DNA from: Phycisphaerae bacterium | Lineage (GTDB): Bacteria; Planctomycetota; Phycisphaerae; SM23-33 | Assembly (NCBI GenBank): GCA_049510055.1 | Contig: JBEKZI010000002.1 | Coordinates: 17,132-81,131 of the forward strand | Length of the DNA: 64,000 nt | Reading direction: 5' to 3' | Part shown: positions 8,272-64,000 of the stretch, one piece after another | Layout: each line of letters starts with the position of its first letter | Numbering within the stretch: position 1 is the stretch's first letter | Notes under the pieces: generated by a model | What the model was told of the DNA's origin: nothing | The model's database searches: none | Seen by the model: only the letters and a program-made list of their open reading frames with translations | Made by a program: the position numbers and the translations under genes

Positions 8272-9750
8272 TTAGAATTGTTTCCGCCGCCGCGCGGGGG
8301 GGATGCCCAGCAGCTTGCGGTACTTGGCCACGGTGCGGCGGGCGATGTCCAGGCCGCTTTTCTTCAACTCGGCGGCCAGGGCGTCGTCGTCCAGCGGGGC
8401 GGCCTTGTCCTCGCCCTCGATAATCTCGCGGAGCTTGACCTTCACGGCGTCCCAGGCGACGTTCTGGCCGTCGGCGGTGGTCGTGCCGCCGGAGAAGAAC
8501 ATCCGCAGCGGGAAAATGCCCACGGGCGTCTGGGCGTACTTGCCCGCCACCGCGCGGCTCACCGTGGCCACGTGCACGCCGACCTTGGCGGCGATGTCGG
8601 CCATCGGCAGCGGGCGCAGGGCCTCGGGGCCGTCCTCCAGGAACTGCCGCTGCACCTTGAACACCTCCTCGGCCACGCGGCGGACCGTCTCGCGCCGCTG
8701 CTGAATCGCCCCGATCAGCCACTGGGCCGAGCGAATGTTTTTCAGGATGAACTGCCGCGCCTGCGAGTCGGCGCCGCGATCGCGGGCCATCTTGCGGTAG
8801 GCCTTGGAGATGTACAGACTCGGCTGATTGCCATCCGACAGCGTGATCTTGATCTCCCCGCCGGCCAGCACTTCCACGAAGACGTCCGGCGAAATGACCG
8901 GCACGGTTCGCTGGCCCACCAGCGAGCCGGGCCGAGGGTTCAGGCGCGACAGGCTCTCGATGGCGGCCTTGATTTCCGGCAGCGATTTGCCGGTGCGCTT
9001 GACGATCTGCGGCAGGCGGTTCATCTCGATGTCGCGGAGGAACCGCTGCACCAGGTCCATTTCCAGCGACACGTCCGCCCCGGCGGTGGCCTCGGCCGCC
9101 AGTTGCAGCATCAGGCACTCGCGCAGGTCGCGGGCGCCCACGCCGGGCGGCTCCAGCGTCTGCACCAGCGACAGCGCCGCGCGCAGGTCGGCCAGGGAGA
9201 CCGGCTCGTTGGTCTGCTTGGGCATCTCCTCCAGGGGCGTGCGGAGGTAGCCGTCCTCGCCGATAAAGTTGATGATCAGCCGGCCGGCGGCGCGGACGGA
9301 TTCCGCGGCCTCGATGAACGCCCACTGCTGGAGCAGGTAATCGTTGAGCGACTGCTCCGGCGCGGGGGCGTTGGCCATGGCGTCCATCTTGGGGTCGCGC
9401 TCCCCACTGACCGGACGGGGCCGCGGGGAGGCCTCGCGGTAGGCGAGCTCCGAGTCGTACTCGTCCGCGAAGTCGTCCAGACGCTTGAAGTCTTCCTTGT
9501 GGTCGTCGGCGGCGTCCACCACCATGTCCCGCTCGCCGGAGGCGTCGGCCTCCTCGTCGCGGTTGGGCGGGGCCTCTTCGTCCACCCCCGGCTCGTGCAG
9601 CTCCAGCACGGGATTGGACTGAAGCTCCGCCTCGATCCGCTCCTGCAAGGCCAGCATCGGCAGCTGGAGGATCTCCATCGACTGGATGAGCCGCGGGGAG
9701 AGCTTCATCCGCTGCTCGAGCCTGAGCTGTTGCGACGCGTCAAACCTCAT
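8272..9750 (-). CDS. rpoN: RNA polymerase sigma-54 factor
   Basis: N-terminal activator-interacting region (LQLPMLALQERIEAELQSNPVLE), a core-binding region, and the C-terminal RpoN box (ARRTVAKYR). Confidence 0.95.
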   Translation of the reverse strand: MRFDASQQLRLEQRMKLSPRLIQSMEILQLPMLALQERIEAELQSNPVLELHEPGVDEEAPPNRDEEADASGERDMVVDAADDHKEDFKRLDDFADEYDSELAYREASPRPRPVSGERDPKMDAMANAPAPEQSLNDYLLQQWAFIEAAESVRAAGRLIINFIGEDGYLRTPLEEMPKQTNEPVSLADLRAALSLVQTLEPPGVGARDLRECLMLQLAAEATAGADVSLEMDLVQRFLRDIEMNRLPQIVKRTGKSLPEIKAAIESLSRLNPRPGSLVGQRTVPVISPDVFVEVLAGGEIKITLSDGNQPSLYISKAYRKMARDRGADSQARQFILKNIRSAQWLIGAIQQRRETVRRVAEEVFKVQRQFLEDGPEALRPLPMADIAAKVGVHVATVSRAVAGKYAQTPVGIFPLRMFFSGGTTTADGQNVAWDAVKVKLREIIEGEDKAAPLDDDALAAELKKSGLDIARRTVAKYRKLLGIPPARRRKQF

Positions 9751-12530: not shown

Positions 12531-12629
12531 GCGACTTTCCGTAGCCCTCCGTCCGTGCGGGGGCGGTTCGTTAATAGAAATGCCGTGCAACTTCGCGTCG
12601 AAACTCCGCGACAGGGGCCCGCCAAGCAG

Positions 12630-12745
12630 GCCAGCTCCAGCCAGGTTGCCCTCCGGCACACGCCGACGAATCGCTTATGGCTGCTTCCTTCCGGACCTGA
12701 CCAGGTTCACGCGTCAACGTTGCAGAGGACCCAGCCTTCAACGCT
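12630..12745 (-). ncRNA. ffs: signal recognition particle RNA (small 4.5S type)
   Basis: The minus strand reads ...GCAACGUUGACGCGUGAACCUGGUCAGGUCCGGAAGGAAGCAGCCAUAAGCGAUUCGUCGGCGUGUGCCGGAGGG... This contains the universally conserved domain IV (CCUGGUCAGGUCCGGAAGGAAGCAGCCA, GGAA tetraloop), identical to the E. coli 4.5S core. The gene lies immediately upstream of dnaX, as in many bacteria. The ends are approximate. Confidence 0.75.
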
Positions 12746-13010
12746 ACCTGAGCGACGGACTGGTCCCGCCACTGAGGCCCTCGGCGAAGCATTCGGTCCC
12801 GCACAAGCGGATTTCGGGTCATCCCGATTGCTCGGGAATCAGGGCACCGCTAGCGCCCCACCTAGCACGGCGAGGCCATCATATCCAGGCCGGGACGGGG
12901 GAGCAAGACACGCGGGGGAAAAGATATCCGCAGAATGTCGCTATTACGGCAGCAGCGGTACCACACGTGATCAGAATGGCCTGATTTTATCCGCTGCTTT
13001 GGGGCACTGG

Positions 13011-28101: not shown

Positions 28102-28968
28102 CTATGTTCGGCTATGAGTAGCGCACCGCACCAGCGAGCGAAGCAGGCGCGCATTGATCAGGTCCCACGCCCGGCCGCGATTGTCAAGGCCCTTGGGCGT
28201 TTCAAGAAGCCCTGCTACGGCGGCCAGGCGGGGATCGTTGACGAAATTTGCGAATCCCCGCCGGCCGATTTGCCCGCGGCCAATGTGGACGTGGCGGTCC
28301 AGCCTGCTACCCAGCGGGCCCAGCGAATCGTTCAGGTGCACGGCCCCCAGGCGGTCGGGGCCGATGACGCGGTCGAATTCGGCCATCGTCTGCCGGTAAG
28401 CCTGCGGCGTGCGGACGTCGTACCCGGCGGCGAAGACGTGGCAGGTGTCCAGGCACACGCCGAACCGCTCGCCTTGCTCCAGCAGGGCCAGGATGTCCGC
28501 CAGCTCCCCGAATGTTCCGCCGATGGTGTGGCCTGCCCCGGCGGTGGTTTCCAGCAGTATCCGCGGGGAAGGGTGCGGGCAGGCAGCCATGATCCGGTTG
28601 AGCGCCTCGGCGATGCGCCGGATACCTTCCTGCCGGTCGGGGCAGGAGCCGGGATGGATGACCAGGGCGTCGATCCCCAGCCGTCCGCAGCGGTCCAGTT
28701 CCTCGGCCGTGGCGGCCAGTGATTTTTGGCGGACTTCCTGCTCGCCGGCCAGGTTCACCAGGTACGAGCCGTGCGCCACGACCGGCCCGATTTCCAATTC
28801 CCGCCGCGTCCGCCGGAAAAGCTGGGCGGCCCGGGCCGTCAGCGGCGGCGCCGACCACTGCCGCTGATTGCGGACGAACATGGCCAGGGCGTCGAAGCCG
28901 TATTCACGGGCGCGGACCAGCGCCTGCTCCAACCCGCCGGCAATGCTCATGTGGGCGCCCAAAAGCAT
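28102..28968 (-). CDS. nfo: deoxyribonuclease IV (endonuclease IV, AP endonuclease)
   Basis: AP_endonuc_2 TIM-barrel motifs (GAHMSIAGG, LLETPKG) with conserved His and Asp metal ligands. Confidence 0.9.
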   Translation of the reverse strand: MLLGAHMSIAGGLEQALVRAREYGFDALAMFVRNQRQWSAPPLTARAAQLFRRTRRELEIGPVVAHGSYLVNLAGEQEVRQKSLAATAEELDRCGRLGIDALVIHPGSCPDRQEGIRRIAEALNRIMAACPHPSPRILLETTAGAGHTIGGTFGELADILALLEQGERFGVCLDTCHVFAAGYDVRTPQAYRQTMAEFDRVIGPDRLGAVHLNDSLGPLGSRLDRHVHIGRGQIGRRGFANFVNDPRLAAVAGLLETPKGLDNRGRAWDLINARLLRSLVRCATHSRT

Positions 28969-43618: not shown

Positions 43619-44218
43619 AAAATTTCTTGACAGGGAGTGATGCACGCCGCTAAAGTTCTTTTCGTTGCAGGTGCCCGCAAGGGCCAACAGGGAAGGCCGT
43701 GAAAGTCGGCCGCGGACGCGCCGCTGTAACCGGCGACGACCGCCGCACGTAAGGCCACTGTCTCGACGCGTGGTCGGGATGGGAAGGCGCGGCGGAAGGA
43801 CGACCCGGGAGCCAGAAGACCTGCCTGCAACCAACCTGGTTGAGCCTCCGCGAGTCATCGGCTGACCGGATCGTGTTTTCTGACGCACGATGCCCCGGGG
43901 CCGCGGCGGACGCGAGGTTCCGGGGTTTTTCATGTGCGGCATGGCCGAGACGCGAACCGCTGGCCCGCCCAACGCGGCATTCGCCCGCCCGGCCTTCGCC
44001 TCCAATCCCCGACAGGTTGCCGATGGACCGGCCTTGCGCCCGGGCTCGCCCATCAGCCGCCATCCGGTGCGATAAGGGAAGGATCGAAAGGAACTCCAGG
44101 AACTTTAAAGAGTCGACACTGTGGTTTTGGTATGCACGCACGTCCCCCTGGCCTCTGGTCAGGGGGCAAGGAAGGCGGCGGCCGATGGGCCGCCCGAGAA
44201 GCTCGAAAGGATTGCATC

Positions 44219-44920
44219 ATGAGAGTTGTCACATTTGCGTTGATCGCGGGAATATCCCTGGCCTCCATGACCGCGGCCGGGGCGAGTTACGCCTACGTCG
44301 GCAGCGGCGACAAATTTGCCAAGGTGTTGTTGGAGTTCAGCGACGGGGCCATATACGCTTTCGGCGTGTCCTTCAGCGACGCCAACACCACCGGCATCGG
44401 CCTGATGGACCTCATCGAGTCCGGCACCACGCTGACCACGGTACGCGTGAACGATCCGTACTTTGGCACCTACATTGACGGCATCTCGTATGAAGGTCAC
44501 AGCAACTCCGGCTACGGCGGCGGGGCGATGTGGTGGCACTATTGGGGCAAGGACCCCTCAGCCGACTGGGCCCTGTCCTGGGTCGGCGCCAGCAGCCGCA
44601 TCGCCACCAACGGCTGCGCCGATGGATGGATTTACGGCCTGGACGACGCGCCGCGCCTGCCCGGCGACGCGACGGGAGACGTCAGCGTCGATGACGCCGA
44701 CTTCGGCGCGATCGCCAGAAACTGGATGCAGAGCGGCAGGACCTGGGCCGACGGCGACTTCACCGGCGATGGCGTCGTGAACGGCGACGACTTCAGCGCG
44801 TTGGCCCGGTTCTGGGGGTTCGGCCAGGCGCCTTCCTCGTCGGCTTCGATACCCGAGCCGGCCACGATTGTTTTGCTGGCCGGCGGTTCGCTGTTGTGGC
44901 TGCGACGAAACGTTGGATAG
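44219..44920 (+). CDS. PEP-CTERM protein with dockerin-like tandem repeats
   Basis: Signal peptide MRVVTFALIAGISLASMTAAGA. Dockerin-type Ca-binding-like repeats (GDVSVDDADFGAIARNW, GDFTGDGVVNGDDFSALARFW) are present. The C-terminus is IPEPATIVLLAGGSLLWLRRNVG. A paralogous C-terminal half is at 58289..59185. Confidence 0.75.
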   Translation: MRVVTFALIAGISLASMTAAGASYAYVGSGDKFAKVLLEFSDGAIYAFGVSFSDANTTGIGLMDLIESGTTLTTVRVNDPYFGTYIDGISYEGHSNSGYGGGAMWWHYWGKDPSADWALSWVGASSRIATNGCADGWIYGLDDAPRLPGDATGDVSVDDADFGAIARNWMQSGRTWADGDFTGDGVVNGDDFSALARFWGFGQAPSSSASIPEPATIVLLAGGSLLWLRRNVG

Positions 44921-51909: not shown

Positions 51910-53471
<1,562 letters not shown>

Positions 53472-54265: not shown

Positions 54266-55114
54266 TTACGTTCCGCTTTTTCCCTTGGAGCCTTTTTTCT
54301 TCGGCAGTCCCTCGATGATCAGCCGCAGGATGGCGTTGGCGGCGCCGTCGGCGTCGTGGTGGGCGGTCACGTAGTCCGCCACGGCCAGGACGCCGGGCGT
54401 GGCGTTGCCCATCGCGACGGCGATGCCCGCCCACTGGAGCATGTCCACGTCGTTGTCGTTGTCGCCGATGGCCATCACTTCGTGGCTGGCCACGCCCAGT
54501 TCCCCGGCCACGGCACGCAGGGCTTTGGCCTTGGAGACCGTCGCGTGGCAGATCTGGAGCAGGTGGTCCTCGGTCATCATCACGTTGACCTGCTGGGGAT
54601 GCGCCTGGACGATCGCGCGGCCCACCTTCAGCAGCGGTTCCGGCTGGCCCAGCAGCAGCAGCTTGGTCACCGGCACGGTCAGCCAATCGTCCACCGGAGC
54701 GATGACGTCGGGGTTAAACACCTTGCCCGTCTCGGTCAGAAAGGCCGGGTCCAGGCGGTCGGTGCACCAGCGGTCGAGGATCTCCGCCGAGACGAGCACC
54801 TGCGGATATTCTTTCCGCGCCAAGGTCACGATGTCGCGGGCGATGTCGATGGCGATGGGGAGGTGCAGGATCACGGTGCCGGAGGGCGGGTCCAGCACCA
54901 AGGCCCCGTTGTAGCAGATCATGGGCGTGTCCAGGTCCAGCAGATTGTAGAAGGGCATCACGCTCCGCGGCGGTCTGGCCGAGGCCAGCACGACGTGCAC
55001 GCCGGCCTCCTGCCGCGCTCGCCTCAGGATGGCCGCGGTGGTCACGGTCACCTGCTTGGCGGAGTTCAGCAGCGTGCCGTCCAGGTCTATGGCGACCATG
55101 TGGATCTTGCTCAT
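54266..55114 (-). CDS. Cof-type HAD-IIB family hydrolase
   Basis: HAD motifs (DLDGTLL; GDNDNDVDML) with a Cof-like cap. Length is 282 aa. Confidence 0.9.
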   Translation of the reverse strand: MSKIHMVAIDLDGTLLNSAKQVTVTTAAILRRARQEAGVHVVLASARPPRSVMPFYNLLDLDTPMICYNGALVLDPPSGTVILHLPIAIDIARDIVTLARKEYPQVLVSAEILDRWCTDRLDPAFLTETGKVFNPDVIAPVDDWLTVPVTKLLLLGQPEPLLKVGRAIVQAHPQQVNVMMTEDHLLQICHATVSKAKALRAVAGELGVASHEVMAIGDNDNDVDMLQWAGIAVAMGNATPGVLAVADYVTAHHDADGAANAILRLIIEGLPKKKGSKGKSGT

Positions 55115-56859: not shown

Positions 56860-57600
56860 ATGAAAAGGATGCTAGTAGCGAGTTTGGTTCTTGGACTATG
56901 TGCCGTGGTGGCACACGCTGGCCTTGTTATAACGGTTACCAAGGTCGGCAGCGCACTGACGGTCCAGGGTGATCAAGGCTCTGCCGTCGTTGATGTGTAT
57001 GACATCACGATATCGAGCCCCAATGCCAATACGTTCGAGACCACCGTGGACATGACGATCGGAGCAGCCACGGGCAAGGGTAGCGATCCGTTCCAGGCTG
57101 CCTATACCACCAAGACGAAGGTGGGCGGCAAGTGGACGTATCCGATTAACCTGACCCCGTCGGAAGACTCTGATTCGTACTGGGATCCGTGCGATGGCAG
57201 CAACATCTACCAGGCCGATTCTCGGTTCCTTCCCTCCGCCGCGGATGCCAATGATCCGTGCGGCGGCATCGAGAACTGGCTGGCCATCCAAGCCCCGACT
57301 GAGACGAACGATAAGTCTATCGATCCCAATCGGGCCATTGCCGATGACATTGTTCTAGGCAAGGGCGGTCTGAGCACGATCTCCGCGATTCCGGTGCCGA
57401 TGCAGAGTCCTTCTCTGCAACTGGCGGCTGTCCGGGTCGGCGTTGTTCAAGGCACGCAGGTTTGGTGCCTGGACCAGTGCGCGTGGTATGACGGCGTGGC
57501 AGACCAGAGCGACAACGTTACCTTTATGATTCCCGAGCCGGCAACGCTGTCTATGCTGTGCCTGGGCGCTTTGGCCCTGATTCGTCGTCGTAGGAGCTAG
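56860..57600 (+). CDS. PEP-CTERM sorting-domain protein, paralog family A (copy 2)
   Basis: MKRMLVASLVLGLCAVVAHA...IPEPATLSMLCLGALALIRRRRS. It is about 75-85% identical to copy 1 over the core. Confidence 0.85.
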   Translation: MKRMLVASLVLGLCAVVAHAGLVITVTKVGSALTVQGDQGSAVVDVYDITISSPNANTFETTVDMTIGAATGKGSDPFQAAYTTKTKVGGKWTYPINLTPSEDSDSYWDPCDGSNIYQADSRFLPSAADANDPCGGIENWLAIQAPTETNDKSIDPNRAIADDIVLGKGGLSTISAIPVPMQSPSLQLAAVRVGVVQGTQVWCLDQCAWYDGVADQSDNVTFMIPEPATLSMLCLGALALIRRRRS

Positions 57601-57668: not shown

Positions 57669-57702
57669 AGGGCCTCGGCAAAACCGAGGCCCTTGTTTTT
57701 TT
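57669..57702 (+). terminator. rho-independent terminator
   Basis: AGGGCCTCGGC-aaaa-CCGAGGCCCT followed by TGTTTTTTT. The stem sequence is shared with the terminator at 56448. Confidence 0.65.
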
Positions 57703-57748: not shown

Positions 57749-58069
57749 TTAGAAGTGCAGGGCCAGAGGTTGGGTGAACTGCACGGCCAGGCCCACGGTC
57801 GCCCCGTCCAGCTCCTCCATGCGGGTGATGCATCCGCTGCCGCGCACGGCCCCATCGCGGCTGGAGTGCCCTCCTCCGGCTGGGACGGCCAGGATGAAGT
57901 CCAGCGGGCTGCCCGCGGGGGGCGCCTCGGCGGCCGGAATGCGAAGGTACATGCCTCCCGAGGAGACGTTGCCCGTGACCCAGGGGCCTGAGGAGGGAAG
58001 CCGGCCGGCGCCCGAAACGGACCAGTGCAGGGGCAACCGCCGATGTTGGCGGCGTTCGGTGTTTGCCAT
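57749..58069 (-). CDS. PilZ domain protein (putative c-di-GMP receptor)
   Basis: 106 aa. The ATG at 58069 is preceded by a GGAGAG SD. PilZ signature motifs RRQHRR (RxxxR) and NVSSGG (D/NxSxGG) are present. Confidence 0.6.
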   Translation of the reverse strand: MANTERRQHRRLPLHWSVSGAGRLPSSGPWVTGNVSSGGMYLRIPAAEAPPAGSPLDFILAVPAGGGHSSRDGAVRGSGCITRMEELDGATVGLAVQFTQPLALHF

Positions 58070-58288
58070 GGCGATCTCTCCTTGGGACGAGCAGCCTCGG
58101 CCACAGTCAGCCGATAGGAAGGATAGCACCCTACCCCTGCCGGAGGCAAGGGCCTCCTATAAGCAAGGCATTCCGGAGAAAGTGGGGGAGTTTTCCTGAA
58201 TTTCTTCCCAGTTCCCTCAGGCGTGCTTGGCGAAACGGCTGTTTTGGGGTATACTGTAACCCCAAGGCGTAAGGAGGATGGGCCGGAG

Positions 58289-59185
58289 GTGGACGGCGTG
58301 CGGAGGTGGACGCAAATAGTTTGTCTTGTCGTTTTGACGGCGTCCCCGGCGTGGGCGGCGACGCTGACGTTGACGTTGGCTCAGCCGACGCTCGGGCAAT
58401 GGGAGGTCTTCGGCCAGCTCAGCAACAATACCGACAACGACGGCCTGTCCAGCCTCATCATCAATGTCCAGGCTGTCGGCGGTGACGTGGGCGTCAGCTC
58501 CTCCCTGAACGATTTGCCCCACGGCACGCACTACTATTTGCTGGACGGCAATGTGCAGTCGCAGCTCGTCGGCTTTACCGAGTTCCGCAGCGACGGCAAC
58601 AGCGGCATCGGCATCTGCGCCGGCCAAAAGACGACCTCTCTGGGACAGGTGGTGCTGACGGACGTGGGCTACTCCGCCGGCAGCACGCCCGGCGACCAAA
58701 CCGGCCTGGGGCTGGGACCGACGCAGATCTCCTGGTCCGCCCCCCTCCTGATCGCCAGCGGCTCCTACAGCGGGACGTATGGCACGTTGTCGGTGGCGGT
58801 GGGGGCGGGGCAGGTCAACGTGCTGAACGAAGGCCGCAACCCCGCTCAGACCGGCGGCGTGCACAAGATCGAGAGCGTCGTGAGCGGCTCACTTCGAATT
58901 TACCACGTCGGCGACGCCACGGGCGATGACAAGGTCGACAGCAACGACTTTGGCGCGCTAGCCAGAAACTGGCTGCAAAGCGGCAAGACCTGGGCCGACG
59001 GCGACTTCAACGGCGATGGCGTCGTGGACGGCACGGACTTCGGCGCGTTGGCCCGCAACTGGGGCTGGTCGGCGTCGGCCTCCATGTCCAGCGCGACGGC
59101 GGCTACGCTCCCCGAACCGGCCACGCTGGCCTTCCTGGGCCTGGGCGCCATGACGCTGCTCGTCCGCGGCCGGCGCAGCCGCTGA
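58289..59185 (+). CDS. PEP-CTERM protein with dockerin-like repeats (paralog of 44219..44920)
   Basis: A GTG start at 58289 lies 12 nt after an AAGGAGG SD. Signal peptide is VRRWTQIVCLVVLTASPAWA. Repeats are DSNDFGALARNWLQSGKTWADGDFNGDGVVDGTDFGALARNW. C-terminus is LPEPATLAFLGLGAMTLLVRGRRSR. Confidence 0.75.
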   Translation: MDGVRRWTQIVCLVVLTASPAWAATLTLTLAQPTLGQWEVFGQLSNNTDNDGLSSLIINVQAVGGDVGVSSSLNDLPHGTHYYLLDGNVQSQLVGFTEFRSDGNSGIGICAGQKTTSLGQVVLTDVGYSAGSTPGDQTGLGLGPTQISWSAPLLIASGSYSGTYGTLSVAVGAGQVNVLNEGRNPAQTGGVHKIESVVSGSLRIYHVGDATGDDKVDSNDFGALARNWLQSGKTWADGDFNGDGVVDGTDFGALARNWGWSASASMSSATAATLPEPATLAFLGLGAMTLLVRGRRSR

Positions 59186-59338: not shown

Positions 59339-60088
59339 ATGAAAAGAATCCTTATTATCAGTTTAGTTCTTGGGTTATGCGATGCGGCGTCGCAGGCCGG
59401 TCTGGTTATAACGGTCGATAAGGTCGGCACCTATACGGTTACGGGCGATACCGGCTCGGCCCTCGTGGATGTGTATGACATAATCATGTCGAGCCCCAAT
59501 GCCAACACGTTCCAGACGACCGTGGACATAACGTTTGGGACGGCTGCGGGGTATGGCGGTCAAAACCCGTTCCAGGCTGCCTATACCACTAAGACGAAGG
59601 TGGGCGGCAAGTGGACGTATCCGGTGAACCTGACCCCCTCGGAAGATGCCGACGGGTATTGGGATCCGTGTGACGGCAGCAACATCTACCAGGCCGATTC
59701 TCGGTTCCTGCCCTCCAGCGCCGACGCCAACGATCCCTGCGGCGGCATCGAGAACTGGCTGGCCATCCAAGCCCCGACCGAGACAAACGATGGGTCCATC
59801 GATCCGAACAACGCCGTGGCCGATGACATTGTCCTTGGCAGGGGCAGCCTGAGCACGATCTCCGCGATTCCGGTGAAAATGCAGAGTCCCAATCTTGTGC
59901 TGCCAGTTGCCAGGATCGGTATCGTGCGGGGAGACGTGGTCTATGTCAAAGACGAATGTGCTTACTATGACGGCATCGCAGACCGGTCCGATATTCCGGG
60001 GTTTGTCTATGCTCCTGAACCGGCCACGCTGACCTTCCTGGGCCTGGGCGCCGTGACGCTGCTGGCCCGCCGCCGGCACGGCCGCTGA
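59339..60088 (+). CDS. PEP-CTERM sorting-domain protein, paralog family A (copy 3)
   Basis: MKRILIISLVLGLCDAASQA...APEPATLTFLGLGAVTLLARRRHGR. Confidence 0.85.
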   Translation: MKRILIISLVLGLCDAASQAGLVITVDKVGTYTVTGDTGSALVDVYDIIMSSPNANTFQTTVDITFGTAAGYGGQNPFQAAYTTKTKVGGKWTYPVNLTPSEDADGYWDPCDGSNIYQADSRFLPSSADANDPCGGIENWLAIQAPTETNDGSIDPNNAVADDIVLGRGSLSTISAIPVKMQSPNLVLPVARIGIVRGDVVYVKDECAYYDGIADRSDIPGFVYAPEPATLTFLGLGAVTLLARRRHGR

Positions 60089-60223
60089 AAATCCGCCGGC
60101 CGCCGGCAATACGTTGACATACATGAAAGCACCTGGAAGCATAACTTTCAGGTGAGGTAGCTTTCCAACCATCAAGGCGTGTGGAGCACACACCTAAAGC
60201 GCAGGAAAGGAAGGGGTTTGGCC

Positions 60224-60997
60224 ATGAAACGAATCCTTATTATCAATTTGGTTCTTGGGTTATGCGCTGCGGCGGCGCAGGCCGGGATCATGTGGCCGGT
60301 CTTGACCGGACCGATTACTATCACGATGGAAAAAGTCGGCACCTATACGGTTACAGGTGACACCGGTTCCGTCATTGTCAATGTGTATGACATGACGATG
60401 TCGTGCCGTAATCCCAACACGTTCCAGACCGTCGTGGACTTGACGATTGGGTCAGCTTGCGGCCGCGGTGATGACCCATTCCAGGTAGGCTTGGTGAACA
60501 AGACGAAGGTCGCCGGCAAGTGGGCGTATCCGGTTGCCCTGACCCCCACCGAAGACGACGATGCCACCTTCTTTGACCCCAATGACGGGACCAACCAGTA
60601 CCAAGCCGACTCGCGGTTCATGCCCTCCAGCGCCGATGCCAACGATCCGTGTGACGGCATCGAGAACTGGCTGGCCATCCAACGGCCGACCGAGACGAAC
60701 GATGGGTCTATCGAGCCGAACACCGCTGTCCCGTATGCCTCCGTCCTGGGCAAGGGCAGCATGGAGGTGATCGCCGCGATTCCGGTGGTGATGCAGAGCC
60801 CTAATCTAAAGCTGAAGGTCGCCCGGATTGGTATCGTGCAGGGAGACATGGTCTATTTCGAAGACCAGTCTGCTTACTATGACGGCATCGCAGACCGGTC
60901 CGATATTCCGGTGTTTCTCTGTGCTCCTGAACCGGCCACGCTGGCCTTCCTGGGCCTGGGCGCCGTGACATTGCTTCGTCGCCGCCGCGGCCGCTGA
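60224..60997 (+). CDS. PEP-CTERM sorting-domain protein, paralog family A (copy 4)
   Basis: The ATG at 60224 (MKRILIINLVLGLCAAAAQA) lies within the ORF 60179..60997. C-terminus is APEPATLAFLGLGAVTLLRRRRGR. Confidence 0.85.
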   Translation: MKRILIINLVLGLCAAAAQAGIMWPVLTGPITITMEKVGTYTVTGDTGSVIVNVYDMTMSCRNPNTFQTVVDLTIGSACGRGDDPFQVGLVNKTKVAGKWAYPVALTPTEDDDATFFDPNDGTNQYQADSRFMPSSADANDPCDGIENWLAIQRPTETNDGSIEPNTAVPYASVLGKGSMEVIAAIPVVMQSPNLKLKVARIGIVQGDMVYFEDQSAYYDGIADRSDIPVFLCAPEPATLAFLGLGAVTLLRRRRGR

Positions 60998-61132
60998 GAA
61001 TCCGCCGGCCGCCGGCAATACGTTGACATGCGCGAAAACACCTGAAAGCGTAACTTTCAGGTGAGGTAGCTTTCCAACCATCAAGGGGTGTGGAGCACAC
61101 ACCTAAACCCCACCAGAGGAAGGAGTTGTATC

Positions 61133-61900
61133 ATGAAACGAATCCTTATTATCAATTTGGTTCTTGGGTTATGCGCCGTGGCGGCACAAGCCGGGATCAC
61201 GTGGAATGTCTTGACCGGGCCGATTAATATCACGATGGAAAAAGTCGGCACCTATACGGTCACGGGGGACAGCGGTTCCGCCATTGTCAATGTGTACGAC
61301 ATGACGATGTGGTGCCGTGATCCCAACACGGTCGAGACGGTCGTGGCCTTAACGATTGGGTCGGCCACGGGCGCGGGTAGTGATCCGTTCCAGGCTGCCT
61401 CGGTGTACAAAGCAGGTAGCAAGTATCATATCGGGTTAACTCCCGTGGAAAGTGCTGACGAGACATTTTTGGATCCGTGCGACGGGAGCAATGCCTACCA
61501 GGCCGATTCCCGCTTCATGCCCTCCGGTGAGTATACCGATCCCAACGATCCGTGTGACGGCATCGAGAACTGGATGAACCTTCGAGTGCCGACCGAGACG
61601 AACGATGGGTCTATCGACCCCAACCAGAATGTGGACGGTGACATGATGCTGGGTAAGGGCGGTATGGAGGTGCTCGTCGCGATTCCGCTGGCAATGCAGA
61701 GCCCTAATCTAAAGCTAAAGATCGCCCGGATTGGTATCGTGCAGGGAGACATGGTCTATTTCCAAGACCAGTCTGCTTACTATGACGGCATACGTGACTT
61801 GAGCGAGTACACAGCGCCGATTCTTGTTCCCGAACCGGCGACGCTGGCCTTCCTAAGCCTGGGCGCCGTGACATTGCTTCGTCGCCGCCGCGGCCGCTGA
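61133..61900 (+). CDS. PEP-CTERM sorting-domain protein, paralog family A (copy 5, most diverged)
   Basis: ATG at 61133 (MKRILIINLVLGLCAVAAQA). The central region is diverged (AASVYKAGSKYHIGLTPVESADETF). C-terminus is VPEPATLAFLSLGAVTLLRRRRGR. Confidence 0.85.
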   Translation: MKRILIINLVLGLCAVAAQAGITWNVLTGPINITMEKVGTYTVTGDSGSAIVNVYDMTMWCRDPNTVETVVALTIGSATGAGSDPFQAASVYKAGSKYHIGLTPVESADETFLDPCDGSNAYQADSRFMPSGEYTDPNDPCDGIENWMNLRVPTETNDGSIDPNQNVDGDMMLGKGGMEVLVAIPLAMQSPNLKLKIARIGIVQGDMVYFQDQSAYYDGIRDLSEYTAPILVPEPATLAFLSLGAVTLLRRRRGR

Positions 61901-61940
61901 AAATCCGCCGGCCGCCGGCAGCAAGTTAACGCACACAAAG

Positions 61941-61981
61941 GCACCTGGAAGCTTGACTTTCAGGTGCCTTTGATGTAATAT
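61941..61981 (+). promoter_or_regulatory. intergenic module: palindrome GCACCTGGAAG-CTTGAC-TTTCAGGTGC overlapping a near-consensus promoter (TTGACT-N17-TAATAT)
   Basis: A 9-10 bp inverted repeat (GCACCTGAA / TTCAGGTGC) brackets the -35 hexamer. The same module, with variations, recurs upstream of copies 4, 5, 6 and 7. Confidence 0.55.
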
Positions 61982-62037
61982 CCCTGCATATCAGGAGGGG
62001 GTGCTCCCCCCTAAAAAGAGAGGAAAGGGGTCGTGTC

Positions 62038-62793
62038 ATGAAAAGAATCCTTATTATGAGTTTGGTTCTTGTGTTATGCGCCGCGGCCGCGCAGGCTGGT
62101 TTGGTTTATACGGTTAATTATATCGGTGCCTATACGGTTACGGGTGATACCGGCTCGGCCCTCGTCGATGTATGGGACATCTATTCGTCGAGCCCTAATT
62201 CAAACACGTTCCAGACCACCGTGGACTGGACGTTTGGGACGGCCATAGGCGCCGGCGGCAATGACCCGTTCCAGGCTGCCTATACCACCAAGACGAAGGT
62301 CGGAGGCAAGTGGACGTATCCAGTGAACCTGACCCCCACGGAAGACTCTGACTCGTACTGGGATCCGTGCGATGGTAGCCACATCTATCAGACCGATTCC
62401 CGGTTTATGCCCTCCAGTTCCAATCCCAGCGACCCGTGCGGCGGCATCGAGAACTGGCTGGCCATCCAAGCCCCGACCGAGACGAACGATCGGTCTATTG
62501 ATTCCAATGAAGCCGTTGCCGATGACATTGTCCTGGGCAAGGGCGGCCTGAGCACGATCTCCGCGATTCCTGTGCCGATGCAGAGTCCTTCTCTGTACTT
62601 GCTCGTTGCCCGGATCGGCGTCGTGCGAGGAGACATGGTCGGGTGCTTGGACCTGAGCGCGTGGTATGACGGCATTGCCGACCGGTCGGATGATAACTTC
62701 TTTTGGTTATCTTATCCTGGACCTGAACCGACGACGCTGACCTTCCTGGGTCTGGGCGCCATAACATTGCTTCGCCGCCGGCGCGGCCGCTGA
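62038..62793 (+). CDS. PEP-CTERM sorting-domain protein, paralog family A (copy 6)
   Basis: MKRILIMSLVLVLCAAAAQA...GPEPTTLTFLGLGAITLLRRRRGR. Confidence 0.85.
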   Translation: MKRILIMSLVLVLCAAAAQAGLVYTVNYIGAYTVTGDTGSALVDVWDIYSSSPNSNTFQTTVDWTFGTAIGAGGNDPFQAAYTTKTKVGGKWTYPVNLTPTEDSDSYWDPCDGSHIYQTDSRFMPSSSNPSDPCGGIENWLAIQAPTETNDRSIDSNEAVADDIVLGKGGLSTISAIPVPMQSPSLYLLVARIGVVRGDMVGCLDLSAWYDGIADRSDDNFFWLSYPGPEPTTLTFLGLGAITLLRRRRGR

Positions 62794-62935
62794 AAATCAG
62801 TCGGCCGCCGGCAATACGTTGACATGCACGAAAGCACCTGAAAGCTTGACCTTCAGGTGCTTTCGTGATATAGCGCCCTTCATCTAAAGGCGCGGAGCAC
62901 ACATCTAAAAGCGCCAGGAAGGGAAGGGTTGGACC

Positions 62936-63703
62936 ATGAAACAAATCCTTATTATCAATTTGGTTCTTGGGTTATGCGCCGTGACAGCACAGGCCGCGCC
63001 CAGGCCGATCATGCCCGGACCGCTGAATATCTCGTTGGAAAAAGTCGGTACGTACACGGTGACGGGTGATACCGGCACGGCCAATGTGGATGTGTACGAT
63101 ATCATCATGTCGAGCCCCAATTTCAACACGTTCCAGACGACCGTAGACCTGACGATTGGAGCAGCCACGGGCCAGGGCTCCGACCCGTTCCAGGCTGCCT
63201 ATACCACCAAGACGAAGTACGGTGGCAAGTGGACGTATCCGGTTAACCTGACCCCCACGGAAGACGACGACGGGTATTGGGATCCGAACGATGGCAGCAA
63301 CATCTACCAGGCCGATTCTCGGTTCCTGCCCTCCAACGCGGATGCCAACGATCCATGCGGCGGCATCGAGAACTGGCTGGCCATCCAAACGCCGACCGAG
63401 ACGAACGATGGGTCCATCGAGCCGAACACCGCTGTCTCATATGCCTCCGTCCTGGGCAAGGGCAGCATGGAGGTGATCGCCGTGATTCCGGCACCGATGC
63501 GGAGCCCCTCTTTGCAGCTGCTCGTTGCCAGGATCGGCGTCGTGGCGGGAGACACGGTTTGGGGCCTGGACCAGTCGGCGTGGTATGACGGCGTGGCAGA
63601 CCAGAGCGATAGGGAGCTGTTTCTGATTCCCGAACCGGCGACGCTGGCCTTCCTGGGCCCGGGCGCCGTGACGCTGCTTACCCGCCGCCGGCACGGCCGC
63701 TGA
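62936..63703 (+). CDS. PEP-CTERM sorting-domain protein, paralog family A (copy 7)
   Basis: MKQILIINLVLGLCAVTAQA...IPEPATLAFLGPGAVTLLTRRRHGR. Confidence 0.85.
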   Translation: MKQILIINLVLGLCAVTAQAAPRPIMPGPLNISLEKVGTYTVTGDTGTANVDVYDIIMSSPNFNTFQTTVDLTIGAATGQGSDPFQAAYTTKTKYGGKWTYPVNLTPTEDDDGYWDPNDGSNIYQADSRFLPSNADANDPCGGIENWLAIQTPTETNDGSIEPNTAVSYASVLGKGSMEVIAVIPAPMRSPSLQLLVARIGVVAGDTVWGLDQSAWYDGVADQSDRELFLIPEPATLAFLGPGAVTLLTRRRHGR

Positions 63704-63770: not shown

Positions 63771-64000
63771 CTAGGCCTGGGCGTATTTCTCCGGTGGGGC
63801 GAACAGGAACATTGCGACCATCAGCGCCCCGACCGCCAGCAACAGCAGGCCGCGGCGCGTCGAAAGGCGCTGAATCTTGGCGGCGGCGATGATTTCCCAG
63901 CCGGCGGGGGGCTCGGGGCGCGGATAGCGGACGGGAATCACCACGTCGGGCGGCGGCCGGGTGGCCCCGGCCGGCGGGACGATCACCTCGTTGTCGGGCA
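63771..64000 (-). CDS. hypothetical membrane-anchored protein (5' end probably beyond window)
   Basis: The reading frame stays open to the window edge. The C-terminal part has a TM helix (LLLLAVGALMVAMFLFA) and a Pro-rich region. Support is weak. Confidence 0.25.
   Translation of the reverse strand, partial: PDNEVIVPPAGATRPPPDVVIPVRYPRPEPPAGWEIIAAAKIQRLSTRRGLLLLAVGALMVAMFLFAPPEKYAQA

Follow-up and report, generated by a model that had tools for sequence, protein, structure and literature searches.

Within an array of PEP-CTERM genes in the window (the whole stretch of 64,000 nucleotides analysed here), a small gene for a stand-alone PilZ protein runs antisense to its neighbours, and the locus raises the question of whether this protein is a c-di-GMP receptor dedicated to the PEP-CTERM proteins encoded around it or has come to lie there for other reasons. 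The earlier note had favoured the former, with c-di-GMP controlling how the array proteins are exported, anchored or associated with EPS; its picture of a PilZ gene embedded antisense in the array is sustained by the present analysis, whereas its functional reading and the terminator proposed to serve both strands are not. The gene probably encodes a monocistronic, minimal PilZ receptor of a Phycisphaerae subfamily, with a place in the array that is best explained by the history of the locus and by an ancestral pairing with a gene for a TIM-barrel protein (TIM gene).

A conserved gene for a single-domain PilZ protein

The ORF (Table 1) has an ATG start, a TAA stop and 106 codons, and its product is MANTERRQHRRLPLHWSVSGAGRLPSSGPWVTGNVSSGGMYLRIPAAEAPPAGSPLDFILAVPAGGGHSSRDGAVRGSGCITRMEELDGATVGLAVQFTQPLALHF. 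Because the window is GC-rich (0.57–0.71) and three other ORFs of 96–160 aa overlap the same DNA, the coding status of this frame needed demonstration. The GC content by codon position (0.70/0.59/0.83) resembles that of the neighbouring real genes, substitutions are most frequent at third positions, followed by first and then by second positions, and the dN/dS values obtained in comparisons with the orthologous DNA of two related lineages, L007 and L009, are 0.28, 0.44 and 0.27, every time the lowest among the six frames; the value of 0.28 corresponds to the comparison of the window with L007, both without the TIM gene. The eight database homologues with 58–95% identity are all 106–110 aa long and have common N- and C-termini, the length and both ends are kept in orthologues down to 56% identity, and the identical protein is encoded on nine contigs from several samples. 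The ribosome-binding site, already judged good in the earlier note, has GGAG-type counterparts at the equivalent place before the orthologues in L007, L009, L011 and L059, and the N-termini of the orthologues all begin at the ATG-equivalent M-[AT]-x-x-E-R-R; a longer version of the ORF starting from a GTG at 58129 (57749–58129, 126 aa) was rejected, since the orthologues align at the ATG. The 106-aa ORF is thus a genuine, conserved gene, in agreement with what had been claimed for it.

Table 1. Coordinates, in the window, of the PilZ gene and of the other features considered
Feature	Position	Strand	Evidence
rpoN gene	8272..9750		
AP_endonuc_2 gene unrelated to the TIM gene	28102..28968		
Isolated 16S rRNA gene	51913..53470		
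Cof-type HAD hydrolase gene	54266..55114		
PEP-CTERM paralogue 2, convergent with PilZ	56860..57600	+	Pfam PEP-CTERM 23 bits; family comparison
Intrinsic terminator of paralogue 2: 10-bp GC-rich stem, then TGTTTTTTTG	57669..57693	+	terminator scan, sequence reading
PilZ gene, 106-aa single-domain protein (R7xxxR11; N34-V-S36-S-G-G39)	57749..58069	-	ORF, Pfam PF07238, orthologues, dN/dS, AF2/Foldseek
Ribosome-binding site of the PilZ gene: AAGGAG 8 nt 5' of ATG	58070..58090	-	read from sequence
Divergent intergenic region, PilZ / dockerin gene	58091..58288	.	by-eye window–L007 comparison, promoter scan
Putative PilZ promoter, CTTGCC-N19-TATCCT preceded by TGC	about 58109..58139	-	conserved with L007
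Putative sigma-70-like site of the dockerin gene	58227..58255	+	promoter scan
Dockerin-like PEP-CTERM gene, divergent from PilZ (GTG 58289 or 58298)	58289..59185	+	Pfam Dockerin_1 30.6 bits, PEP-CTERM 21.7 bits
Five of the seven PEP-CTERM paralogues	59339..63703		

The assignment to the PilZ family was approached through profiles, motifs and predicted structure. The HMM comparison with Pfam PilZ (PF07238) that had been suggested as a check is passed marginally, at 24.2 bits where the gathering cut-off is 22.5 (+1.7 bits, E 4.3e-5), and the match covers residues 5–100 of the protein and positions 1–86 of the 102 in the profile. An exhaustive profile search retrieves 347 representative relatives at E <= 0.001, nearly all of 100–135 aa and consisting of this domain alone, and 91 of the 92 aligned members of this wider family match PF07238 (best E 2.7e-13); the NCBIfam scan of the window protein gives only TIGR02266 below threshold (16 bits, cut-off 68.7). 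The canonical RxxxR and D/NxSxGG motifs recognised previously are present as RRQHRR (residues 6–11, containing R7-Q-H-R-R11) and NVSSGG (residues 34–39), 22 residues apart, and are kept in all close orthologues, the hydrophobic L12 and L14 after R11 completing an RxxxRhxh pattern. The motif pair alone is weak evidence for a PilZ protein, since the loose expression RxxxR...[DN]xSxxG matches 4 of the 561 ORF segments of at least 60 aa in the window, the other three in non-coding frames. The 92-sequence alignment places R7xxxR11 onto RxxxR and N34-x-S36-x-x-G39 onto [D/N]xSxxG, with R7, R11 and S36 conserved in at least 90% of the sequences and G39 invariant, and in the alignment of the 21 members of the subfamily the invariant positions include R7, R11, S36, G38 and G39, together with P63, G65, G67, G79, R83 and F98. 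Three motifs are specific to the subfamily, VP(P/A)GxGxS, RGxGxVxR and a C-terminal FTxPLxLxF, all of them found in the window protein (VPAGGGHS, RGSGCITR and FTQPLALHF), and these may form a candidate surface for binding a partner.

When the 92-sequence profile is compared with the sequences of the PDB, the matches are Bacillus subtilis YpfA/MotI (5vx6, E 1.1e-8), PA0012 (8u0i) and a cellulose-synthase PilZ domain (4i86). A profile restricted to nine close orthologues recovered designed armadillo repeats only, a spurious result driven by a repeated W..GN[IV][AS]SGG-like motif, and was discarded. The AF2 model, built from a nine-sequence alignment and therefore of moderate confidence (mean pLDDT 71, pTM 0.64), with a low-confidence N-terminus around RxxxR, has six strands forming a beta-barrel, and the top 18 PDB chains found with it by Foldseek are all PilZ domains, most of them c-di-GMP-bound, at TM 0.5–0.6; the best matches include MotI, Alg44, PA0012, BcsA, MapZ and the tetrameric Xanthomonas PilZ protein, with PlzA just lower (rank 23). 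The canonical PilZ domain consists of six strands and a single long C-terminal alpha-helix (Galperin and Chou, 10.1101/814665). The window protein, in contrast, ends eight residues past strand 6 and its model has no C-terminal helix, an absence that leaves the ligand-binding motifs unaffected. The 106-aa product has PilZ as its single domain, and its ligand-binding motifs are intact; it is a new member of a well-known family and otherwise an ordinary receptor, which presumably binds c-di-GMP and would act as an adaptor on another protein. That the ORF is instead nonfunctional, as a chance ORF in GC-rich DNA or as the decaying leftover of an operon that lost its other gene, would accord with the abundance of long spurious ORFs in such DNA, three of which overlap it, with the chance recurrence of the motif pair and with the marginal Pfam score, but this appears refuted, as far as the sequence data allow, by the dN/dS values of 0.27–0.44, the conserved length and termini, the occurrence of the identical protein in different samples and the match of the predicted fold, and is extremely improbable.

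Transcription and surroundings of the PilZ gene

The arrangement described previously, with PilZ divergent from the dockerin-like gene, convergent on paralogue 2 and antisense within the array, is correct as a description. The stop codon of paralogue 2 is 149 bp from PilZ, the intergenic region between PilZ and the dockerin gene is of about 220 bp, and the latter gene has orthologues in L007, L009 and L011 with 65–73% identity. The orientation of PilZ relative to the PEP-CTERM genes is the same in all the orthologous loci, and the window gene forms no same-strand operon with PEP-CTERM or exosortase genes. Since PilZ is convergent with one PEP-CTERM neighbour and divergent from the other, it is not co-transcribed with them; it shares no transcript with any gene of the array and is probably monocistronic.

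The hairpin downstream of paralogue 2 had been suggested as a terminator that may serve both strands. The T-run that follows the stem exists on the plus strand only, whereas on the minus strand, where the hairpin lies 55 nt past the PilZ stop, the tail is UAAAGGGUAC, with no U-tract, and the terminator scan calls the plus strand only. In addition, the convergent genes abut or overlap in L007 and L062, leaving no room for an equivalent hairpin, and the idea of a shared terminator is therefore unsupported. On the other side of PilZ, the comparison by eye of the window with L007 reveals a common upstream sequence, CTTGC-N19-TGCTATCCT, which is plausibly an extended -10 promoter of PilZ, and a putative sigma-70-like site precedes the dockerin gene (Table 1). 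Sigma-54 promoters were also considered before the array genes and rejected, with 19 matches against 31 expected, no enrichment and none well placed. An rpoN gene is found elsewhere in the window.

From about 57 kb towards about 44 kb, the window contains PEP-CTERM genes, the genes for a Cof-type HAD hydrolase and for an isolated 16S rRNA, and those for a rhamnogalacturonan lyase, an MFS transporter and an aldo-keto reductase, among others, and neither exosortase nor EPS-biosynthesis genes appear among the Pfam-annotated genes of the window. The genes of the 64 kb and of about 5 kb of flanking DNA include no GGDEF or EAL gene, that is, no diguanylate cyclase or phosphodiesterase, so that the existence of c-di-GMP signalling in this organism is an assumption. 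About 6.5 kb before the start of the window, with a peptidase S13 gene on one side and a cdsA-like gene on the other, there is a second stand-alone PilZ gene (107 aa, Pfam 41 bits). The relatives found among GTDB genomes are Phycisphaerae MAGs, and the database names of the neighbouring proteins also refer to Phycisphaerae.

The TIM-barrel gene and the probable history of the locus

The steady partner of this PilZ family in the relatives is the TIM gene, which encodes a xylose-isomerase-like TIM barrel of 276 aa (PF01261, AP_endonuc_2, 84.8 bits) distantly similar to L-ribulose-5-phosphate 3-epimerase. In about 17 distinct lineages whose PilZ is 35–63% identical to that of the window (L009, L011, L059, L062 and about 13 others, namely L020, L021, L023, L024, L026–L030, L034/35, L037, L040, L042 and L044), it immediately precedes PilZ on the same strand, and the TIM proteins of these lineages are 58–85% identical to each other. 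The flanks of the pair are variable, with genes for a GDSL lipase, GH106, lysyl-tRNA synthetase, an ABC ATPase, an anti-sigma-antagonist-like protein or a LuxR-type regulator, and the persistence of the two genes amid these changes is the pattern that would be expected of a functionally coupled pair. A UgpC/MalK-like ABC ATPase gene (NF008653, 488 bits against a cut-off of 432) is directly upstream of PilZ in four to five lineages (L031/32, L036, L038 and L043), and in L024 and L040 the order is ABC-TIM-PilZ. The TIM family has 5480 homologues at E <= 1e-40, Phycisphaerae and other Planctomycetota being among the matches listed, and when the contexts are sampled from the TIM side PilZ is found downstream in three of four (L059, L062 and L064, with L065 as the one without it).

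Upstream of PilZ in the window, in L001–L008 and in L018, neither the TIM gene nor any remnant of it is present. A search for a remnant between PilZ and the dockerin gene returned noise only (E > 0.2), and the only other AP_endonuc_2 gene of the window (Table 1) was rejected as the missing partner, being unrelated, so that the 64 kb are without a TIM gene. In a search of the protein database, no TIM homologue of more than 70% identity came from the 1.3-Mb metagenome contig of which the window forms part, or from sample sources typical of this organism, which suggests, though not conclusively, that the gene has been lost from this genome. Given that the partner of PilZ in the relatives is lost here, the position of PilZ in the array looks mostly accidental.

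The relationship with the PEP-CTERM genes is apparent in the six lineages in which PilZ is at least 50% identical to that of the window (the window itself, 100%; L007, 83%; L009, 63%; L062, 59%; L011, 56%; L059, 50%). In all of them, two to three copies of homologous PEP-CTERM genes are immediately downstream of PilZ and convergent with it, with gaps of -4 to 150 bp, and are followed by the HAD gene, except that the L011 locus ends before that position. The entire region of L007 and of L009 is collinear with the window, and the adjacency there consequently says little, while in L059 and L062 the block formed by TIM-PilZ, the PEP-CTERM genes and HAD persists even though both outer flanks differ, which lends modest support to a linkage and suggests that the adjacency is not purely accidental. 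Five of the seven paralogues of the array are missing from L007, whose dockerin gene is directly followed by a 151-aa gene and enolase; they would represent a lineage-specific expansion after the split from L007, and the embedding of PilZ in the array is therefore recent.

According to the explanation preferred here, the ancestral state would have been a two-gene unit in which the TIM gene, coding for a sugar-phosphate isomerase/epimerase-like protein, was followed by PilZ, and the unit would have come, in one clade, beside a fast-evolving cluster of PEP-CTERM genes and the gene for the Cof-type HAD phosphatase. In the lineage of the window and in L007, TIM would then have been deleted, leaving PilZ with its own promoter beside the dockerin gene, and only in the lineage of the window would five more PEP-CTERM paralogues have been amplified on the far side. 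The PilZ protein itself would be a small adaptor that binds a second protein directly and thereby modifies its activity, like the stand-alone MapZ and MotI. For the PilZ family as a whole, gene context best supports the TIM enzyme or the sugar-uptake pathway as the partner, and not the PEP-CTERM proteins. The narrow Pfam pass, the AF2 model from nine sequences, the missing C-terminal helix, the lack of diguanylate cyclase and phosphodiesterase genes in the 64 kb and the block conserved in L059 and L062 were counted against this explanation.

It is possible, although rather doubtful, that PilZ still serves the ancestral sugar pathway in the window organism, through c-di-GMP control of a TIM enzyme and/or a UgpC/MalK-type ATPase encoded elsewhere in the genome, with the PEP-CTERM proteins as bystanders. 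Such a role is suggested by the recurrence of the same-strand TIM-PilZ pair with varied flanks, by the ABC-PilZ or ABC-TIM-PilZ arrangements of six to seven more lineages and by the high conservation of the TIM family, but it has to be reconciled with the absence of the TIM gene from the locus and from the 64 kb, with its suggested loss from the genome and with the occurrence of TIM without PilZ in L065; moreover, we know of no interaction between a PilZ protein and xylose-isomerase-like or UgpC-type enzymes. For the PilZ family as a whole, the sugar-pathway role seems to be founded about as well as a role in the display of the PEP-CTERM proteins, or better, and the partner best supported by gene context would be the TIM enzyme or the sugar-uptake pathway and not the PEP-CTERM proteins.

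PEP-CTERM proteins as possible targets and comparison with known PilZ systems

The proposal closest to the earlier note is that PilZ is a dedicated c-di-GMP switch for the exosortase-dependent sorting, anchoring or EPS association of the neighbouring PEP-CTERM proteins, acting, for instance, through binding to the exosortase or to the Arg-rich cytoplasmic tails of the precursors. In agreement with it, the homologous PEP-CTERM genes are downstream of PilZ in all six closest lineages, the block is kept in L059 and L062, the PEP-CTERM family of the array is rare (10 database hits, of which nearly all belong to this same locus), and PilZ domains control exopolysaccharide machines elsewhere, as in Alg44 and BcsA, both of them among the fold matches. 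That family is narrow and fast-evolving, its proteins being 28–40% identical between lineages and 54–74% among paralogues within a genome, and L063 has a member of it without a PilZ gene. None of about 35 loci of more distant PilZ homologues (30–49% identity, plus L020 at 55%), many of them on short contigs, has a PEP-CTERM gene within 2 kb. The single case, a PEP-CTERM gene 1.1 kb downstream of the 31%-identical PilZ in L012, was rejected as independent support because its product is unrelated to the array family. A neighbour of this kind is unsurprising given the background density of such genes.

A scan for PEP-CTERM tails with a regular expression finds eight genes in the array and two in the remaining 55 kb of the window, which corresponds to about one per 25–30 kb outside the array and indicates that PEP-CTERM genes are common in this genome. 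The convergent and divergent orientations, with no common transcript, the lack of exosortase and EPS genes in the window and the existence in the genome of at least one further stand-alone PilZ gene, in an unrelated context, also speak against a dedicated switch, and full-text searches of the literature found no paper linking a PilZ protein to PEP-CTERM sorting. A switch of this type is possible, the case for it being adjacency within one clade only, but we consider it unlikely: beyond that adjacency, the control proposed in the earlier note finds no support, given the separate transcripts, the persistence of TIM as neighbour, the recent origin of the paralogues and the second PilZ elsewhere, and the gene context does not single out the array as the target of PilZ. 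A composite of both roles, in which the Phycisphaerae subfamily of helix-less mini-PilZ proteins originally served as c-di-GMP adaptor of the TIM enzyme and the UgpC-type ATPase, and its window member was kept after the loss of TIM because it also gated, or was rewired to gate, the exosortase-dependent display of PEP-CTERM proteins, is quite unlikely.

In architecture, the nearest known proteins are stand-alone adaptors such as MapZ (PA4608; PDB 5xly and 5y4r) and PA0012 (8u0i) of P. aeruginosa. They consist, like the window protein, of one PilZ domain of about 100 aa and nothing else, and the predicted barrel superposes on their structures with TM of about 0.5; the sequence identity is, however, just 15–20%, the window protein lacks the C-terminal helix of the canonical, MapZ-type domain, has its own subfamily motifs and has no chemotaxis or motility genes nearby. 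MapZ is a c-di-GMP-dependent adaptor acting on CheR1, and by analogy a similar mode would be expected for the window protein. MotI (DgrA/YpfA) of B. subtilis is the best match by both profile (E 1.1e-8) and Foldseek (E 2.8e-4, TM 0.61), through its C-terminal PilZ domain, although MotI has two domains and 216 aa, is YcgR-like and acts on the flagellar stator, whereas the window protein is the PilZ domain alone. The PilZ domains of Alg44 (4rt0) and BcsA (4hg6 and 4p00) have the same fold and motifs as the window protein and provide the precedent for c-di-GMP control of the export of cell-surface polymers, but there the PilZ domain is joined to the secretion machine or is one of its parts, while the window protein is free and has no gene for a synthase, co-polymerase or exosortase in its vicinity.

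The neighbours of PilZ carry the sorting signals known from the PEP-CTERM/exosortase systems (TIGR02595, exosortase EpsH), as exemplified by the PepA flocculation system of Zoogloea. EpsA and the other known regulators that NCBIfam lists for these systems belong to families other than PilZ, and to our knowledge no PilZ component has been described for these systems; a genuine link of PilZ to the PEP-CTERM proteins would give exosortase sorting its first described input from a second messenger. As far as we know, c-di-GMP signalling has received little study in Planctomycetota, where no target of a PilZ protein is known. Full-text searches found no paper on PilZ function in this phylum. A link to the TIM enzyme or the UgpC-type ATPase would mean, if true, second-messenger control of carbohydrate uptake or metabolism, and either link would define a class of PilZ target that we have not seen described. 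With the PilZ gene itself being ordinary, the most interesting by-product of the analysis is the recurrent TIM-PilZ pairing, with or without the sugar ABC ATPase, a concrete and testable candidate for c-di-GMP control in these polysaccharide-degrading bacteria.

PilZ genes and their neighbours

On many contigs of Phycisphaerae type, the stand-alone PilZ gene belongs to a unit of two genes, in which a 276-aa xylose-isomerase-like TIM-barrel gene is followed by the mini-PilZ gene; the flanks of this conserved unit differ between contigs, and in some of them it is preceded by a UgpC/MalK-like ABC ATPase gene. The two-gene unit is not present in the lineage of the window. A second stand-alone PilZ gene (107 aa) lies on the same contig as the window, some 6.5 kb ahead of the window's first nucleotide (in locus L017), between a peptidase S13 gene on one side and a CTP_transf_1 (cdsA-like) gene on the other, and its product shares only 33% identity over 60 aa with the window PilZ.

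Locations of the features discussed (the TIM-barrel–PilZ units are examples, and further contigs carry the unit)
Feature	Location	Strand	Match
TIM-barrel–PilZ unit	L009 9130-9960		
TIM-barrel–PilZ unit	L011 5345-6175		
TIM-barrel–PilZ unit	L024 8964-9794		
TIM-barrel–PilZ unit	L059 6001-6831		
TIM-barrel–PilZ unit	L064 5001-5831		
Second stand-alone PilZ gene	L017 3861-4184		Pfam, 41.2 bits
Five tandem PEP-CTERM paralogues	window 59339-63703	+	
Conserved 151-179-aa gene	window 63771-63986	-	
Conserved 151-179-aa gene	L011 3660-4199		
Conserved 151-179-aa gene	L007 8387-8842		
rpoN (sigma-54)	window 8272-9750	-	
Large SRP RNA	window 12583-12870	-	
16S rRNA gene, complete, solitary	window 51913-53470	-	
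Cobalamin riboswitch	window 43652-43842	+	Rfam RF00174, 110 bits
233-aa ORF, dockerin-like match and PEP-CTERM tail	window 44219-44920	+	

Amplification of the PEP-CTERM paralogues

Amplification specific to this lineage produced the five tandem PEP-CTERM paralogues and, along with them, the conserved sequences that precede them (a hairpin, GCACCTGAAAGC...GCTTTCAGGTGC, and a TTGACAT box); the related contig L007 is without this amplification. Identity among the paralogues of this genome is 54-74%, but it falls to 28-40% when they are compared with those of related lineages, which points to rapid diversification or to repeated independent duplication. The window carries rpoN; a search of the sequence upstream of the PEP-CTERM genes turned up no consensus promoter for sigma-54. 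The arrangement of enolase, a conserved 151-179-aa gene and the dockerin-PEP-CTERM gene is kept in all collinear relatives; the product of the conserved gene ends in ...LLLLATGALLVALFLFAPPEKY and has no match in Pfam or NCBIfam.

The 16S rRNA gene and the cobalamin riboswitch

The 16S rRNA gene, flanked by the genes for a HAD hydrolase and a rhamnogalacturonan lyase, is complete, and no 23S, 5S or tRNA gene occurs anywhere within the 64-kb window, so the rRNA genes appear to be unlinked; L007 and L009 have gaps of matching size at the equivalent position.

The cobalamin riboswitch stands immediately 5' of the 233-aa ORF, whose dockerin-like match is sub-threshold (21.8 bits against a cut-off of 22.9) and whose product shares 58% identity, over 86 aa, with the array's dockerin protein. 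This product may be a surface protein that is regulated by B12 and sorted by an exosortase, perhaps one for corrinoid capture. A BtuF/FecCD/ABC-type operon is situated a few kb upstream of the riboswitch and ORF, at about 38.7-41.6 kb.
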